This document shows, in pieces, positions 13,261 through 19,850 of a DNA stretch of 22,786 nucleotides. A program made the position numbers and the translations under genes. This DNA is from a virus. Its lineage: Duplodnaviria > Heunggongvirae > Uroviricota > Caudoviricetes. Numbering within the stretch: the stretch's first letter is position 1; every line of letters begins with the position of its first letter. The notes below the pieces were generated by a model that ran no database searches, was not told where the DNA came from, and was given only the letters and a program-made list of their open reading frames with translations. Where the stretch lies: IMG/VR virus record IMGVR_UViG_2547132415_000008, positions 1 to 22,786 of that record. One strand, 5' to 3'.

Positions 13261-13457
13261 CGTTTAACAGCCTGCCGGACGGGCTGTCCTACCTTCTCAA
13301 TCCGGTTGACGCCGGGTTAATTCCTTATACAGCACTTAAAGATGGCTCTGTCGATTTGTACGACATTGCTCTCTTAAATGACCATCTGGCGGTAAAAGCG
13401 GATAACCAGCGGCGCATTGAGAAATGGAGAGAGGATAATGAACGCCGAGACTATTAA
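13215..13457 (+). CDS. -1 frameshift extension of the tail assembly chaperone (long form, G-T-like product), 81 codons with no ATG
   Basis: The -1 frame is open from 13215 to TAA at 13455..13457 (AYTPYQHDAEPATGLTFNSLPDGLSYLLNPVDAGLIPYTALKDGSVDLYDIALLNDHLAVKADNQRRIEKWREDNERRDY) and is entered at T TTT TTG (13209..13215). Confidence 0.6.
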   Translation, partial: AYTPYQHDAEPATGLTFNSLPDGLSYLLNPVDAGLIPYTALKDGSVDLYDIALLNDHLAVKADNQRRIEKWREDNERRDY

Positions 13458-15426
13458 AGATTTCCTCGTCTCGCTTGGCTTCAGTGTGGATGATGCAGGA
13501 GCGAAAAAATTCGGTTCTGTCCTCGCCGGTACAACTGCAAATGTCATCAAAATGGGGCTGGCCGTCGAAGGAGCTGCGCTGTCCGTGGTGGCCTTCACGG
13601 CTAAGATCGCCTCCGGTCTGGATAATCTTTACTGGGCGTCACAGCGCACCGGCGCGACAGTCCAGGGAATTCAGTCTATTGGCTATGCGGTTTCGCAGGT
13701 TGGCGGCAGCGTGGACGCTGCGCGATCTTCTCTGGAAAACCTCTCCCGGTTTATTCGTAATAATCCCGGGGCGGAGGGATTTCTGAATCGCCTGGGCGTA
13801 CAGACCCGTGATGCCAGCGGTAACATGCGTGACATGGCCGCTATCTTTACGGGCGTTGGACAGAAACTCAGCAGCATGCCGTATTACCGGGCTAACCAGT
13901 ATGCGCAGATGCTGGGCATTGACGAAAATACCCTTATGGCGATGCGCCGGGGTGTGGGTGGCTTCTCCGGGCAGTACAGCGCAATGGCGAAAGCTATCGG
14001 CTTCAATGCTGACGAGGCGGCCAGAAGCTCCAACAAATTTATGACCTCCCTGCGTGAGTTTAGCGCGATGGCAGGCATGGCCCGTGACAAAATCGGCTCT
14101 AATCTTGCGGGTGGGCTTGCAGGTTCGCTGGACACCCTGCGCCGCCATATCCTGGACAACTTCCCTCGTATCGAGCAGACCCTGACGAAAGCCATAAAAG
14201 GCATTCTGGCGCTCGGGGATATTATCGGGCGGCTGTTCTTCAGACTGATTGAGGGGACATCAGGCCTTATCACCTGGTGGCAATCGCTGGATAAGCAAAC
14301 GCGGGAGTTGATCTCGCTGTTTGGCGCACTGACGATTGCGCTGCGCATTCTGAACAGTACGTTCTGGATGTCGCCGGTTGGCCTCATTACCGCGCTGGCG
14401 GCGGGGATTGCCCTCCTGTGGGAGGACTATCAGACCTGGAAGGAAGGCGGCGACAGCCTGATTGACTGGGGCAAGTGGAAACCGGAGGTCGATGCCGCGC
14501 TGAAGATGGTTCGTGACCTTAAAACGACCGTTAACGACCTGGCGAAAGCGCTGGCGAAACTACTCAATATTGACCCCAAATCATGGTCCCTGAAGTGGGA
14601 TTTCAGCAACTTCATCGACCAGATGGGCGAATTCAGCAAAATGCTGAACATGATCGCCGACCTGCTCAACGCTATCAAAGATGGCCGCTGGGCTGATGCC
14701 GTCAGCATCGGCAAACAGATACTTAATCAGGGCAGCGAAAATCCGTCAGCGATGCCGATGGTTACAGACAGCGCTAACAGTACTGCCGACTGGATTAAAG
14801 AGCACTGGGGATTCGATCCCCGCAGTGTGGGCCGGACGGTACGCGGCTGGTTTGGTGATGATGAGCCGGAACAACATGCACAGGCTACGAAACGAGGAGA
14901 ACGGAATAACAATCCGGGAAACCTTAATTTTGCTGGTCAGGCGGGGGCTTCTCTTGAACGCCCGGGCGGGCGATTTGCCAGATTCGAAACTGCCTTTGAT
15001 GGATTACGGGCTCTTGCTCGTCAGTTAATGTTGTACGCCGGACGGGGAATAAACAGCGTGGAGAAAATTGTCTCTACCTGGGCGCCTGCGTCTGATAATA
15101 ACAACACAACTGCGTATATCAGGGCTGTATCGCAACGACTGGGAGTGGATCCCCGGGCTGCCCTGAATATGAGCGATCCGCAAACCATGTCAGCATTGAT
15201 GAGCAGCATTATCCAGCATGAGAATGGAAGAAATATCTATTCCCGAGAGCTGATTAATAAGGCTGCCGTGGCGGGAATTAGTGGCAAAGTGACAGAGGTT
15301 AACCAGCAAAATACCTACCACATTTACGGTGGCGGAGATCCGCACGCTGTCGGTAATGAGGTTGCACGTCGGCAACAGTCTGCAAATGCTCAGGTCATGC
15401 GAAGTAATCAGGTGAGGGTGGGTTAG
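13438..15426 (+). CDS. Tail tape measure protein
   Basis: ATG 13438 preceded by GGAGAGAGG (the track ORF starts at 13417). 663 aa; a long Ala/Leu/Gly-rich helical protein downstream of the frameshifted chaperone; hydrophobic central segment; distinct C-terminal domain. Confidence 0.75.
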   Translation: MNAETIKDFLVSLGFSVDDAGAKKFGSVLAGTTANVIKMGLAVEGAALSVVAFTAKIASGLDNLYWASQRTGATVQGIQSIGYAVSQVGGSVDAARSSLENLSRFIRNNPGAEGFLNRLGVQTRDASGNMRDMAAIFTGVGQKLSSMPYYRANQYAQMLGIDENTLMAMRRGVGGFSGQYSAMAKAIGFNADEAARSSNKFMTSLREFSAMAGMARDKIGSNLAGGLAGSLDTLRRHILDNFPRIEQTLTKAIKGILALGDIIGRLFFRLIEGTSGLITWWQSLDKQTRELISLFGALTIALRILNSTFWMSPVGLITALAAGIALLWEDYQTWKEGGDSLIDWGKWKPEVDAALKMVRDLKTTVNDLAKALAKLLNIDPKSWSLKWDFSNFIDQMGEFSKMLNMIADLLNAIKDGRWADAVSIGKQILNQGSENPSAMPMVTDSANSTADWIKEHWGFDPRSVGRTVRGWFGDDEPEQHAQATKRGERNNNPGNLNFAGQAGASLERPGGRFARFETAFDGLRALARQLMLYAGRGINSVEKIVSTWAPASDNNNTTAYIRAVSQRLGVDPRAALNMSDPQTMSALMSSIIQHENGRNIYSRELINKAAVAGISGKVTEVNQQNTYHIYGGGDPHAVGNEVARRQQSANAQVMRSNQVRVG

Positions 15427-16317: not shown

Positions 16318-17379
16318 ATGTCACAGAACTGGATGAGACATTTCGAGCTGCAGCTTGTGGACGGGAACGGTCAGGGAATTGAGCTAAGTGATTTTAAAGT
16401 CACCTTTACGATCGACTGGTTCAACATCAGCAGCGCGTCCCGGGTAGGGACTATCAAAATTTATAACCTCTCGGCAGATACTGTGAACCGAATCACCGGG
16501 CAGGAGTTTTCGAAAGTGCGTCTGATTGCCGGTTACGACGGTATCGCGCCGGAGGTGTCGGCAAGCGACGTCGGGACCGTGCGGGAAGTTGACGCGGCGG
16601 ACGTGGGTCAGAGTGATGGCCGCAACTACGGACTGATTTTCAGCGGTGAAATTCGCTACTCGGTCACAGGAAAAGACAGTCCGGTTGATTCCTACGTCCT
16701 GATTCAGGCAGCAGATACTGATCTGGCTTTTGCCACCAGTATAACCTCACAGACGCTGGCTGCCGGTTACACGGTCGCTGATGTAAACCGTGCGCTGATG
16801 AAAGACTTCGAAGCCAAAGGCGCGACCGAAGGCCTGACGCCTGAAATGCCTGCTACTGTATTCCCCCGGGGGCGGGTACTCTTTGGCATGACGCGGCATC
16901 TAATGGATAACGTAGCCGGGCAATGTGGCGCAACATGGCAATTCGTGGACGGTCAGCGCCAGATGGTGGCGAATAACGAATATGTTCATGAAGCGATTGT
17001 GCTCAACAGCGCTACCGGGCTTATTGGCATGCCGCAGCAGACTATCGGTAACGGCGTAAACGTCCGCGCGCTTATTAATCCGAACATCCGGGTTAACGGA
17101 CTTATTCAGCTGGATCAGGCTTCCGTGTATCGTACCGCCTTGTCGAACAACGATATTGCGATGGCTGGTGGTCAGATCACCGACCAGAACACGGATGGAA
17201 ATATCACGCTAAGCGGCACCACATCGCAGCCTGCCAGCATCGCAACGGATGGCGTTTATATTGTGCGCGGGATTATGTACACTGGCGACACAAGGGGCCA
17301 GGCGTGGTACATGGATATGATGTGCGAAGCGCGTGGCGCGGCGGATCTGTATACGCGATCGGCTTTGCAAAGGGGATGA
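16318..17379 (+). CDS. Baseplate hub / tail protein (hypothetical)
   Basis: 353 aa; RBS GGAG upstream; position after tape measure and small tail proteins. Confidence 0.5.
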   Translation: MSQNWMRHFELQLVDGNGQGIELSDFKVTFTIDWFNISSASRVGTIKIYNLSADTVNRITGQEFSKVRLIAGYDGIAPEVSASDVGTVREVDAADVGQSDGRNYGLIFSGEIRYSVTGKDSPVDSYVLIQAADTDLAFATSITSQTLAAGYTVADVNRALMKDFEAKGATEGLTPEMPATVFPRGRVLFGMTRHLMDNVAGQCGATWQFVDGQRQMVANNEYVHEAIVLNSATGLIGMPQQTIGNGVNVRALINPNIRVNGLIQLDQASVYRTALSNNDIAMAGGQITDQNTDGNITLSGTTSQPASIATDGVYIVRGIMYTGDTRGQAWYMDMMCEARGAADLYTRSALQRG

Positions 17380-17382
17380 GCA

Positions 17383-17724
17383 ATGAGGGGTATTATTTTT
17401 CTGTTAGCTGTCTTTTCTGCGTGCAGCGCGTGGGCGGATGGCTTCACGGTTAAATGCGGTGGCTACACTATGGTTGCAAACCAGGGCGAGTTATCGACTA
17501 TCAACGGTGAAAGAGTTACCTCTCAAAAAATCACCGAACTGGGTACCAATGGTTTGAAAGTAGACATGGGGCTTATGCCTGCCAAAGACGGTAACAACTA
17601 CGGCTTTGAATACATTCGTCGCCCTGGTACCGAAACGCGATTCCTGAATATCCAGCTTCTGCAGAACAGCATGGATGCGCCGAAAATCATCGGATCTTTC
17701 CCTTGTAAAAAAGTGGCTGGGTGA
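17383..17724 (+). CDS. Small secreted protein or lipoprotein with N-terminal signal peptide (moron candidate)
   Basis: 113 aa; MRGIIFLLAVFSACSAWADG has a hydrophobic core, a lipobox-like FSAC and an AWA-DG signal peptidase I site. Two further Cys in the mature part. Not expected for a virion tail component. Confidence 0.6.
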   Translation: MRGIIFLLAVFSACSAWADGFTVKCGGYTMVANQGELSTINGERVTSQKITELGTNGLKVDMGLMPAKDGNNYGFEYIRRPGTETRFLNIQLLQNSMDAPKIIGSFPCKKVAG

Positions 17725-17750
17725 AGGTAACCTGAAATTCGTAACGCCTG

Positions 17751-17789
17751 AAAAACAACAAAATGTGCTCTAAAAACTGTTGTTTTTTG
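17751..17789 (+). terminator. AT-rich hairpin with T-run, weak candidate terminator upstream of the cassette
   Basis: AAAAACAACA (17751..17760) pairs with TGTTGTTTTT (17778..17787); loop is 17 nt; T-run follows. Weak. Confidence 0.3.
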
Positions 17790-17809
17790 AGACGAGCGAT
17801 TACACTGCA

Positions 17810-17850
17810 CTGACTTTTTGATGGTGGATTGCCATCGATATGCTACTTCA
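17810..17850 (+). promoter_or_regulatory. Possible cassette promoter (TTGATG -35-like at 17818..17823, TATGCT -10-like at 17839..17844)
   Basis: Hexamers read by eye; spacing is 15 bp, which is suboptimal. Low confidence. Confidence 0.2.
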
Positions 17851-17873
17851 TTAAAGCCAGGAATAACTAAAAC

Positions 17874-18605
17874 ATGAGTTTAGCGCAGCCAAAATCAGGA
17901 GAACTGTTAGATCTTCTGACTCCTTCATTAACTAAGGGTGAAAACCTTCTGAGTGAGTTTGAAATCCATCGAATCATTCGTGAAGCGAAGAAACTACCTG
18001 AACGTTATCAGGGGCTATCAATTGAAGGCTTAGCTAAGCTTGTTCTTGGTGAAATAGATGAAGGATGTTCACTCTGTGAGCGGGGGTTGAGAATAGCGCC
18101 TAACGATCCAGTTTCTTTTTGTAACTATACGATTGCGCTGCGTAACTTAGGTTTGCATGCTCGCCAGTATGTGATGATTCAGAAAGCATCTGATTCACTT
18201 AATCCAACGATATTGGCTGAGGTTGCTACAATTTCTGCATACTGGGTTGATATCGATTTGCTTGAAAAGGTGATGCCGATGCTAACTGCAATGGAAGTAC
18301 CGCGCCCTGAAGATATGGGCAAATGGTATGACACGCTCAATTATCTGCATACCCAAAAAGATCATGCTCAGGAGCTAAAAACTATTGGGCGGCTCATGAT
18401 GAACGTTGCAGAAAAGTACCGCGCTCGTCTTGCTGGCGCTCATGCTTTTTATGTAATGTCAGAACTTGATACGCTGTTCGTTGAAGTCAAAACAGACGAT
18501 CCAGTGCTTCTTTCGCAGATGAATAATGCCTTGGCTGATGAGATTATTATTGCGGGGCTTGCGGATTCAGAATGCGTCGGATGCTTTGAAGCCGGGGAAC
18601 TCTAA
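17874..18605 (+). CDS. Cassette gene A: uncharacterised 243-aa protein, helical, TPR-like segment and two CxxC motifs
   Basis: ATG 17874 with AGGAATAA upstream. Lower GC than flanking tail genes by eye. CSLC near residue 64 and CVGC near residue 232; segment GLRIAPNDPVSFCNYTIALRNLGLHARQYVMIQKA looks TPR-like. Stop overlaps gene B start (TAATG). Confidence 0.7.
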   Translation: MSLAQPKSGELLDLLTPSLTKGENLLSEFEIHRIIREAKKLPERYQGLSIEGLAKLVLGEIDEGCSLCERGLRIAPNDPVSFCNYTIALRNLGLHARQYVMIQKASDSLNPTILAEVATISAYWVDIDLLEKVMPMLTAMEVPRPEDMGKWYDTLNYLHTQKDHAQELKTIGRLMMNVAEKYRARLAGAHAFYVMSELDTLFVEVKTDDPVLLSQMNNALADEIIIAGLADSECVGCFEAGEL

Positions 18606-19033
18606 TGTCGGTTGAGCATACCTGTTTTCTTGAATTGGCTAAGCATTCCCTGGCTCTAAACGGTGAGATGTGGACGAGAAATGCTATTAGCCGAGCATAC
18701 TATGGTATGTACCATTCCGCCTTACGGATCACCAACAATCTGGTACCGACCGCTACACAAGATGGTGAAAAACTAAAAGGTGGAGTTCACATGCGAGTCT
18801 ATACGGCCTTTTGTAGTGGTGAGGCAGCTGCACTTAACGATGTTGATGTTAACGCAGTAAAGAAAATCGGCGTTAAACTGAAAATGACGCATGCCCAACG
18901 TGTTAATTCTGATTACAAGCTTGAGCGGAAAATCAACCGGATTACCGCGAGAAGTGTAATTCTGGATGCGGAAGAGGTCGATGCAATCGTTAATCAATTA
19001 CTGAAGATTGGTGATGACTCGTTAACTGCATAA
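18605..19033 (+). CDS. Cassette gene B: uncharacterised 142-aa protein with HEPN-like R-x6-H motif (RAYYGMYH)
   Basis: Translationally coupled to gene A; low GC by eye; followed 22 nt later by a strong intrinsic terminator. Motif RAYYGMYHSALRI resembles the HEPN helix signature from memory; unverified. Confidence 0.7.
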   Translation: MSVEHTCFLELAKHSLALNGEMWTRNAISRAYYGMYHSALRITNNLVPTATQDGEKLKGGVHMRVYTAFCSGEAAALNDVDVNAVKKIGVKLKMTHAQRVNSDYKLERKINRITARSVILDAEEVDAIVNQLLKIGDDSLTA

Positions 19034-19054
19034 GCTGAAATTTCTCAAAATTCA

Positions 19055-19078
19055 AACCCGCCACTTGGCGGGTTTTTT
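19055..19078 (+). terminator. Rho-independent terminator closing the cassette
   Basis: AACCCGCC (19055..19062), loop ACTT, GGCGGGTT (19067..19074): 8-bp GC-rich stem followed by TTTT. Confidence 0.8.
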
Positions 19079-19097
19079 GCTTTCTGGAGCCTACTAA

Positions 19098-19850
19098 ATG
19101 GCAGTATCTGACCAGACCCGCAGCGGCGACCTTGCCGAAACATTTAAATCTGAACGGGAAACAACAAAGAACCAGATCCGTGTCGCCTTGCCTGGCATTA
19201 TTCAGTCATTCGATCCTGACGCGGTGACGGCGGTTGTGCAGCCAGCTATCCGGTCAGTTGAAAAGGATAACGACGGTAACCGCATTACCAAAAATTACCC
19301 ATTGCTGGTGGATGTGCCAGTGGTATTCCCGCGCGGCGGAGGCTGTACGTTGACTTTTCCGGTAAAAGCTGGGGATGAGTGTCTTGTCGTTTTTGCCGAT
19401 CGTTGTATTGATTTCTGGTGGCAGAGCGGCGGGATACAGGAGACGGTTGATGACAGAATGCATGATTTATCGGATGCGTTTTGTATTGTCGGTCCCCAGT
19501 CGCAGGCTAGGAAGATTAGCGGTATTAATACCAGTGCCACACAGTTGCGTAGTGACGACGGCAGCACCTATTTTGAGCTTAATCCTGATACCAGGAAAAT
19601 TAAAATTGTCGCTCCGGGGGGGCTTGATGTGGTTGCCCCCCTGGCTGATTTTTCTGAGAAAGTAACCATTCATGGCCTGTTAACCTGGATGGGGGGCATG
19701 GTGGGGTCTGTGGTTTCTGGTGTGGCTTCAAAAATCACTGGTGCTGTTGAGTTTTTGGGGAGCGTGAAGGCTAACGGCAAGCCAATCGATGATACGCACA
19801 CTCATGGCGGTGTTCAGCGCGGTGGAAGCAATACCGATGGGGTAAACTGA
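19098..19850 (+). CDS. Baseplate central spike / assembly protein (gpV-like)
   Basis: 250 aa; RBS GGAG 8 nt upstream; followed by coupled baseplate wedge genes; Gly-rich C-terminus. Confidence 0.55.
   Translation: MAVSDQTRSGDLAETFKSERETTKNQIRVALPGIIQSFDPDAVTAVVQPAIRSVEKDNDGNRITKNYPLLVDVPVVFPRGGGCTLTFPVKAGDECLVVFADRCIDFWWQSGGIQETVDDRMHDLSDAFCIVGPQSQARKISGINTSATQLRSDDGSTYFELNPDTRKIKIVAPGGLDVVAPLADFSEKVTIHGLLTWMGGMVGSVVSGVASKITGAVEFLGSVKANGKPIDDTHTHGGVQRGGSNTDGVN

Follow-up and report, generated by a model that had tools for sequence, protein, structure and literature searches.

A TPR-like protein and a HEPN-fold protein are encoded as a mobile gene pair in a cargo hotspot of Escherichia coli prophages

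The window, i.e., the whole stretch of 22,786 nt analysed here, represents an E. coli prophage, and strain WAT and many other genomes are 99.9% identical to it over the region tested. In the annotated region, lambdoid early and lysis genes are fused to a myovirus-type tail module, and two adjacent genes, here termed A and B, are located between the baseplate hub region and the spike gene. Two tRNAs are the sole Rfam matches in the window; their genes lie in tandem at 436-588 on the plus strand and are annotated in the WAT prophage as tRNA-Asn and tRNA-Thr downstream of the Q antiterminator gene. The features of the tail module and of the segment around gene A are the following.

13417-15426: tape measure/transglycosylase gene, followed by genes for baseplate proteins
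16318-17379: hub gene, upstream of the 113-aa ORF
17383-17724, plus strand: 113-aa ORF with a signal-peptide/lipobox-like N-terminus (MRGIIFLLAVFSAC...); phrog_3443, unknown function
17727-19053, plus strand: variable cargo segment of the prophage hotspot, holding only the leader, gene A, and gene B
17727-17873, plus strand: cassette leader and putative regulatory region, read from the sequence
about 17751-17788: AT-rich inverted repeat in the leader of the window allele
17801-17806: -10-like TACACT in the leader
17860-17863: AGGA ribosome-binding site upstream of gene A
17874-18605, plus strand: gene A, 243-aa acidic TPR-like protein; WP_000050470; phrog_22649
17892-18353, plus strand: TPR-like domain of A, residues 7-160, all-helical with nine helices
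18066-18077, plus strand: CSLC (C65, C68), residues 65-68, within TPR helix 61-74; not conserved
18357-18593, plus strand: small, compact C-terminal domain of A, residues 162-240, alpha-beta-beta-alpha-beta
18573-18584, plus strand: CVGC (C234, C237), residues 234-237, on the terminal beta-strand 234-240
18605-19033, plus strand: gene B, 142-aa HEPN-fold protein; WP_000110002; phrog_5176; JGI name "UPF0332 family"
19054-19085, plus strand: strong intrinsic terminator in the gap between B and the spike gene, with a hairpin at 19054-19075 (9-bp stem with six GC pairs) and a T-rich tail
19098-19850, plus strand: spike gene, followed by the sheath initiator and a gp47-like baseplate J gene

The 113-aa ORF is a conserved phage-backbone gene that adjoins the hotspot, and its DNA is 92.7% identical to that of Yersinia phage YP3. 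It could encode a secreted or lipoprotein moron, e.g., a superinfection exclusion factor.

The segment with genes A and B is delimited by abrupt changes in sequence similarity. In blastn comparisons with loci that carry other cargo (L009, L010, and L012), the similarity is lost at about 17714-17726 and regained from 19054 onwards. On the left, the segment borders on the stop codon of the 113-aa ORF (17724), and on the right, on the foot of the terminator hairpin. The GC content across the A-B segment is 40-46%, compared with 50-56% in the flanks. These flanks are present in 353 E. coli genomes, with this A-B allele in only 32-33 of them, and elsewhere the hotspot is occupied by a YafO-family toxin pair, a DUF2335 protein, a DUF4282 protein, or a 170-aa hypothetical protein. 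Because of its low GC content, its sharp boundaries, the alternative cargo at the same site, and the terminator downstream, the A-B pair reads as a moron, i.e., as accessory cargo that is mobile across phage sites. Diverged A-B alleles occupy the same slot in L010 (A 31% and B 48% identity), L011 (A 30% and B 37%), and E2348/69 (L012) and L062, in which A is recognisable only by profile. In other phages, the pair was located elsewhere: Klebsiella siphovirus prophages carry it between the genes for the tail assembly chaperone and the tape measure protein, Klebsiella phage Chronis has it in the nin region, and in L064 it follows the tail fibre genes. Its carriers seem to be mainly temperate phages and prophages.

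Three further observations concern the distribution of the pair. The hotspot itself, as judged from the comparison of 17727-19053 with L009-L012 and L059-L062, is sharply bounded and holds at least four deeply diverged A-B alleles in the approximately 353 E. coli prophages. A distant A-B pair in L071 (4001-5149) lies at an apparently non-prophage chromosomal site between uvrC/pgsA-like genes and the gene for an 878-aa SMC_N/AAA_23 protein, a neighbourhood that may be a small defence islet. Another distant pair is located in Klebsiella phage ST405-OXA48phi1.3 (L073, 2780-3896), where it is flanked by the tail chaperone region and the tape measure gene, and the annotation of its B gene as two short ORFs suggests either a mis-annotation or a frameshifted B.

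The transcriptional context combines a variable leader with a constant terminator. A consensus scan of the plus strand in the window allele detected no sigma-70 promoter upstream of A. Seven other loci (L002, L006, L015, L048, L050, L051, and L072), which represent different phages and sites, have a promoter-like TTGAAG/A-N17-TACACT about 80-125 nt upstream of A; most of them have a TTACC...GGTAA palindrome in the spacer, and four of the seven contain a GC hairpin with a T-run in the leader before the A start codon. Palindrome and hairpin with T-run look like a putative operator plus attenuator that travel with the cassette. Of this arrangement, just the TACACT is retained in the window allele, whose inverted repeat is a different, AT-rich one. 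The terminator downstream of B belongs to the conserved right flank and is present whatever the cargo type. For the distal tail genes to be transcribed late, antitermination of the Q type is presumably required, and a Q antiterminator gene is annotated in the prophage that carries this terminator.

The product of gene A is named "hypothetical protein" in all public sources. The 243-aa protein is a full-length match to phrog_22649, with homologues in 26 clusters from Enterobacterales, and a profile search yielded 353 proteins at E<1e-3, of which about 60 among the 150 matches listed are full-length relatives (215-285 aa). Pairwise dN/dS ratios of 0.05-0.17 at dS values of up to about 0.6 document strong purifying selection, and a test for positive selection gave low ratios across the whole gene and every region tested, with no arms-race signature among close alleles. 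Judged from its sequence relatives, gene A is a genuine conserved gene.

The earlier note on this DNA, made from the sequence alone, had described A as a helical, acidic protein with a TPR-like segment and no recognisable catalytic motif, and all of this holds. The AF2 model of A (pLDDT 90.5, pTM 0.87) has the right-handed alpha-alpha superhelix of TPR proteins, with a canonical TPR junction (...CERGLRIAPNDPVSFCNYTIALRNLG...) at residues 68-93. The TPR_17 match of the window protein in Pfam (15.4 bits) is below the cutoff of 24.4, but family members match TPR_1/2/8/14 with E values down to 5.7e-9, and many long TPR proteins align with the family profile at positions of approximately 42-112. 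A probably holds at least one or two true TPR repeats, and its other helices are TPR-like by fold only. Sequence searches of PDB, Pfam, NCBIfam, and PADLOC with A returned nothing beyond TPR, and no family of PADLOC-DB v2 (2023) is common to more than one of the 65 representatives. For the C-terminal domain, there was no match to Pfam, to PDB sequences, or to a known family; a designed repeat protein and chemoreceptor (MCP) fragments that were hit with the profile of this domain in the PDB sequences were discarded as spurious helical matches. A fold search of BFVD retrieved two uncultured siphovirus proteins with the whole architecture (TM 0.66-0.68), which bear no functional names.

Only N217, which sits in an L..LN..L helix, and F238 are conserved in at least 90% of the 65 representatives of A, both of them in the C-terminal domain. 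Because almost no polar residues are invariant family-wide, A is probably non-enzymatic. The protein is acidic (pI 4.84, net charge -13; family median pI 4.9), with the negative charge concentrated in residues 111-243. The best-conserved part family-wide is the N-terminus (residues 1-45) and not the C-terminal domain. Taken alone, A is a fairly ordinary TPR-type adaptor, and the interest of the finding rests on the A-B pair.

In the AF2 model of B (pLDDT 91.4), four helices form an up-and-down HEPN bundle. The nine best Foldseek matches in the PDB are all HEPN domains (probability up to 1.0, TM up to 0.6), and the matches to B comprise 2hsb (AF0298), 1ufb (TT1696), 2q00 (SSO P95883), 1wty, the HEPN domain of sacsin, and HEPN-MNT complexes (8xeh). 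A profile search aligned AF0298 (2hsb) at both signature helices, with a marginal E value of 0.15. No family in NCBIfam, Pfam, or PADLOC was matched by B above threshold; PF05168 is hit below threshold by 6 of 28 family members, and 10 of the 28 weakly match the PADLOC model HEPN_IX (best E 5.5e-4), which represents the HEPN effector of type IX retrons (DefensePredictor supplement). The predicted structure assigns B to the HEPN fold and, within it, to the AF0298/UPF0332 (HEPN-T) type.

The conserved residues of B are R25, R30, Y32, Y33, H62, R99, D103, and Y104. The canonical Rx4-6H at the start of the last core helix is absent; R30-x6-H37 is placed in another helix, and some members lack H37. 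Instead, B carries the motif R99-VNS-D103-Y104 (R-x3-D-Y), with H62 and H96 conserved elsewhere, and R99, D103, Y104, and H62 are kept in 38 of 38 sequences examined, including those at 23-27% identity. In the AF0298 HEPN-T clade, Asp replaces His, and another conserved His could complete an alternative active site (Anantharaman et al., PMC3710099). The site formed by R99, D103, Y104, and H62 would fit a preserved active site of this type, and the AF0298 clade (PDB 2hsb) is both the best structural and the best profile match of B, the two having R-x3-D-Y and a separate conserved His in common. They differ in that sequence similarity is marginal, that an additional segment, GGxHxR, is conserved in B, and that the distribution of B is phage/enterobacterial. 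B is mildly basic (pI 8.55) and under purifying selection (dN/dS 0.03-0.07). By analogy, it is probably an RNase or an RNA-binding toxin; its catalytic activity is uncertain because it lacks the canonical Rx4-6H, and no AF0298-type HEPN-T protein is known to us to have been validated biochemically as an RNase.

Genes A and B are obligately paired. The start codon of B overlaps the stop codon of the upstream gene A by 1 nt (TAATG), an arrangement that suggests translational coupling. In the 43 IMG/VR loci found via B, an A-family ORF abuts or overlaps the B start wherever the upstream DNA suffices, and B lies downstream in every locus found via A. Downstream of each of six distant A members (profile E 1e-5 to 1e-11) lies a 124- to 127-aa ORF of the B family (E 1e-10 to 1e-18), which in one of these loci (L063) is cut by the contig end; four distant A members used as search queries retrieved no related loci in viral contigs. 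The two genes are neighbours in each of the 42 unique pairs, whose identities fall to about 16% (A) and 23% (B). The two partners have also co-diverged: their pairwise identity matrices correlate with r = 0.967, no partner swapping was seen, and B is the more conserved partner in 95.5% of the comparisons. The data support the view that A and B constitute an autonomous, mobile module of two genes in which A is the non-catalytic partner and B the HEPN protein. The earlier proposal of a binding or regulatory role of A beside B has, with the HEPN fold of B and the invariant adjacency, become the best reading, and that of an antitoxin partner is plausible.

An exact-sequence look-up places the 243-aa A and the 142-aa B in one 90%-identity cluster, which is not expected of unrelated sequences. 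The cause is probably an artefact or a gene call in the collection that is fused or reads through.

Among known systems, the HEPN-MNT modules (HEPN-T/PF05168 or HepT/DUF86 with MNT, e.g., HepT-MntA of Shewanella; PDB 7bxo/6m6u/8xeh) are similar in the combination of a small HEPN protein with an upstream partner gene. HEPN-T proteins are classically the toxin halves of such pairs (PMC3710099), the nearest structures of B are HEPN-T proteins and HEPN-MNT complexes, and B shares the conserved C-terminal Tyr of most MNT-associated HEPN domains (Anantharaman et al., PMC3710099). However, A is a TPR plus small alpha/beta protein and not a nucleotidyltransferase: it has no GS...DxD or G[SG]...DxD motif, no NTase fold, and no NTase match in Pfam. 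Neutralisation by AMPylation is therefore excluded, and an assignment of A-B to the HEPN-MNT modules was rejected.

A precedent for operons of HEPN and TPR-type repeat genes with a predicted defence function is provided by the families LA2681 ("in operon with TPR") and AbiU2 ("in operon with Sel1 repeats") (Anantharaman et al. 2013). Unlike B, these families keep Rx4-6H, and they have not been described as prophage hotspot cargo; a Pfam scan of the B family with E values up to 1 gave no match to either model. The type IX retron effector is the only defence-database model touched by members of the B family, but neither a reverse transcriptase nor msr/msd is found near the cassette. The HEPN systems DS-11, 28, 29, and 38, which DefensePredictor validated, were rejected as counterparts, with different sequences and architectures.

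Prophage-borne HEPN abortive-infection proteins are known from other phages, i.e., HepS of Gifsy-1, a single-protein system with a canonical R100-H105 and no partner gene (PMC13043305), and Tha of Staphylococcus aureus phages, which is inhibited by the small antisense-encoded Ith (PMC11087260). HepS, Tha, and the RemAIN HEPN nuclease are accessory effectors of temperate phages that are inactive until a phage structural protein is sensed, which is the functional model proposed for A-B. HepS and Tha have no TPR partner, unlike B, and neither was among the matches of B (the profile search of PDB sequences gave only 2hsb, and none of the best 50 Foldseek matches has a HepS label); identity of A-B with HepS or Tha was rejected, both being single HEPN proteins unrelated in sequence. 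The A-B pair is not described in Rousset 2022 or in the 2026 domain-centric paper, and our literature and accession searches returned no description of it; Brenes & Laub 2025, on E. coli prophage defences, was outside the comparison.

On balance, we are inclined to regard A as the non-enzymatic partner and B as the effector of a mobile two-gene toxin or defence module in a prophage hotspot, which we hold with a little more than even confidence. By analogy with HEPN-MNT, RnlAB, and the prophage HEPN abortive-infection proteins HepS and Tha, we infer that the acidic A would bind the basic B and hold it inactive in the lysogen. A would stand where MNT sits in the HEPN-MNT modules and would act by binding and not by enzymatic modification. 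One candidate B-binding surface is the small C-terminal alpha/beta domain with N217 and F238, the sole near-invariant residues, a choice that is weakened by the N-terminus being the best-conserved part of A. The TPR groove may accommodate a cue, either a protein or a peptide, that an infecting phage supplies, or the cue may be that A itself is lost. Once released or activated, B would damage or sequester RNA and arrest translation, and the outcome may be abortive infection or a response of the toxin-antitoxin type, or the death of cells losing the cassette. This reading is weakened by the non-canonical motif of B, by the negative scan for a sigma-70 promoter upstream of A in this allele, and by dN/dS ratios that show no positive selection.

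A more specific version of this explanation, which we consider less likely than not, is that A is a minimal, NTPase-free pattern-recognition subunit. Its TPR groove would recognise a phage protein and allosterically release or activate an AF0298-type HEPN RNase, and the diverged hotspot alleles would represent alternative specificities.

Among the alternatives, a plain type II toxin-antitoxin system is unlikely; it differs from the explanation we favour only in whether the TPR domain has its own ligand. A would then be a labile antitoxin that only neutralises B, the pair would serve prophage stabilisation or host shut-off, and no phage protein would be sensed. The antitoxin-first order with overlapping stop and start codons, the acidic A beside a basic B, their strict co-inheritance, the YafO-family toxin pair at the same hotspot in other strains, and the classical toxin role of HEPN-T in HEPN-MNT pairs (PMC3710099) are all compatible with such a system. 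A is, however, much larger (243 aa) than B and built on a ligand-binding repeat fold, it lacks an RHH, HTH, AbrB, or other DNA-binding domain, and neither protein matches a toxin or antitoxin model of NCBIfam or Pfam.

We regard it as rather improbable that B is an inert, binding-only HEPN protein and that the pair has a purpose other than toxin-based defence, e.g., in anti-defence or in the regulation of nucleotide signalling or of RNA from host or phage. Phage morons also encode counter-defence genes, which would suit this alternative, as would the missing canonical Rx4-6H of B. HEPN domains without this motif may be non-catalytic binders (Anantharaman et al., PMC3710099). On the other hand, the retention of R99, D103, Y104, and H62 in every B sequence examined fits an AF0298-type active site, and the cassette is found mainly in temperate phages and prophages, where defence cargo is usual.

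A function of A and B as accessories of tail morphogenesis within a structural operon, e.g., of A as a TPR chaperone for baseplate or spike assembly, would be in line with the location of the pair on the same strand between the baseplate hub and spike genes and with its position next to the tape measure gene in Klebsiella prophages, but is highly improbable: about 320 of the 353 E. coli prophages with the same flanks carry unrelated cargo instead of this allele, the GC content of A-B differs from that of the structural genes, the similarity to prophages with other cargo stops at the end of the 113-aa ORF (17724) and resumes at 19054, and a structural or assembly role is rejected since A-B also occurs at unrelated genomic positions such as the nin region of Chronis and a chromosomal site.

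Equally poor are the prospects of the zinc site that the earlier note had suggested, in which CSLC and CVGC together form a four-Cys site linking the N- and C-terminal parts of A. Both CxxC motifs are present in this allele, at residues 65-68 and 234-237, and all four Cys occur together in 9 of 26 close homologues. Within this group, C65 is kept in 13, C68 in 18, C234 in 25, and C237 in 13 sequences, with C65 replaced by Y, F, A, I, S, or T, C68 by L or M, and C237 by Y or F, and the losses are uncoupled (e.g., the patterns ACCCC, CCCCY, and YLGCF). Among the 65 representatives, the counts are 7 (C65), 25 (C68), 23 (C234), and 3 (C237); C234 is conserved only in the close group, C237 is mostly F or Y, and the four positions are mostly occupied by the hydrophobic residues I, V, L, F, and Y, which marks them as probable buried hydrophobic positions. 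The predicted structure of A alone, whose confident fold was built without any metal, lends the site no support either: helix 61-74 has C65 and C68 in its middle, and the last strand carries C234 and C237 at a distance of three residues (AF2 model, DSSP), so that the side chains of the latter two would face opposite sides of the sheet, which argues against a convergence of the Cys residues. With the four-Cys site, the designation of A as a metal-binding sensor falls as well.

The explanation of A-B as a toxin or defence module with a binding partner and a HEPN effector would have consequences beyond this prophage. If A-B is active, it would provide the first known functional handle on the AF0298/UPF0332 HEPN-T clade, whose catalytic status has been questioned since 2013, and would indicate that a TPR binding protein can take the place of a nucleotidyltransferase in the control of a HEPN toxin. 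A compact sensor-effector pair of only 1.2 kb would thereby be added to the prophage-borne defences. If the TPR domain does sense phage proteins, the pair would represent a new two-protein immune module with a repeat-protein sensor in place of the MNT antitoxin. The hub/spike junction is a sharply bounded hotspot that would be useful for mining further cargo of E. coli prophages.
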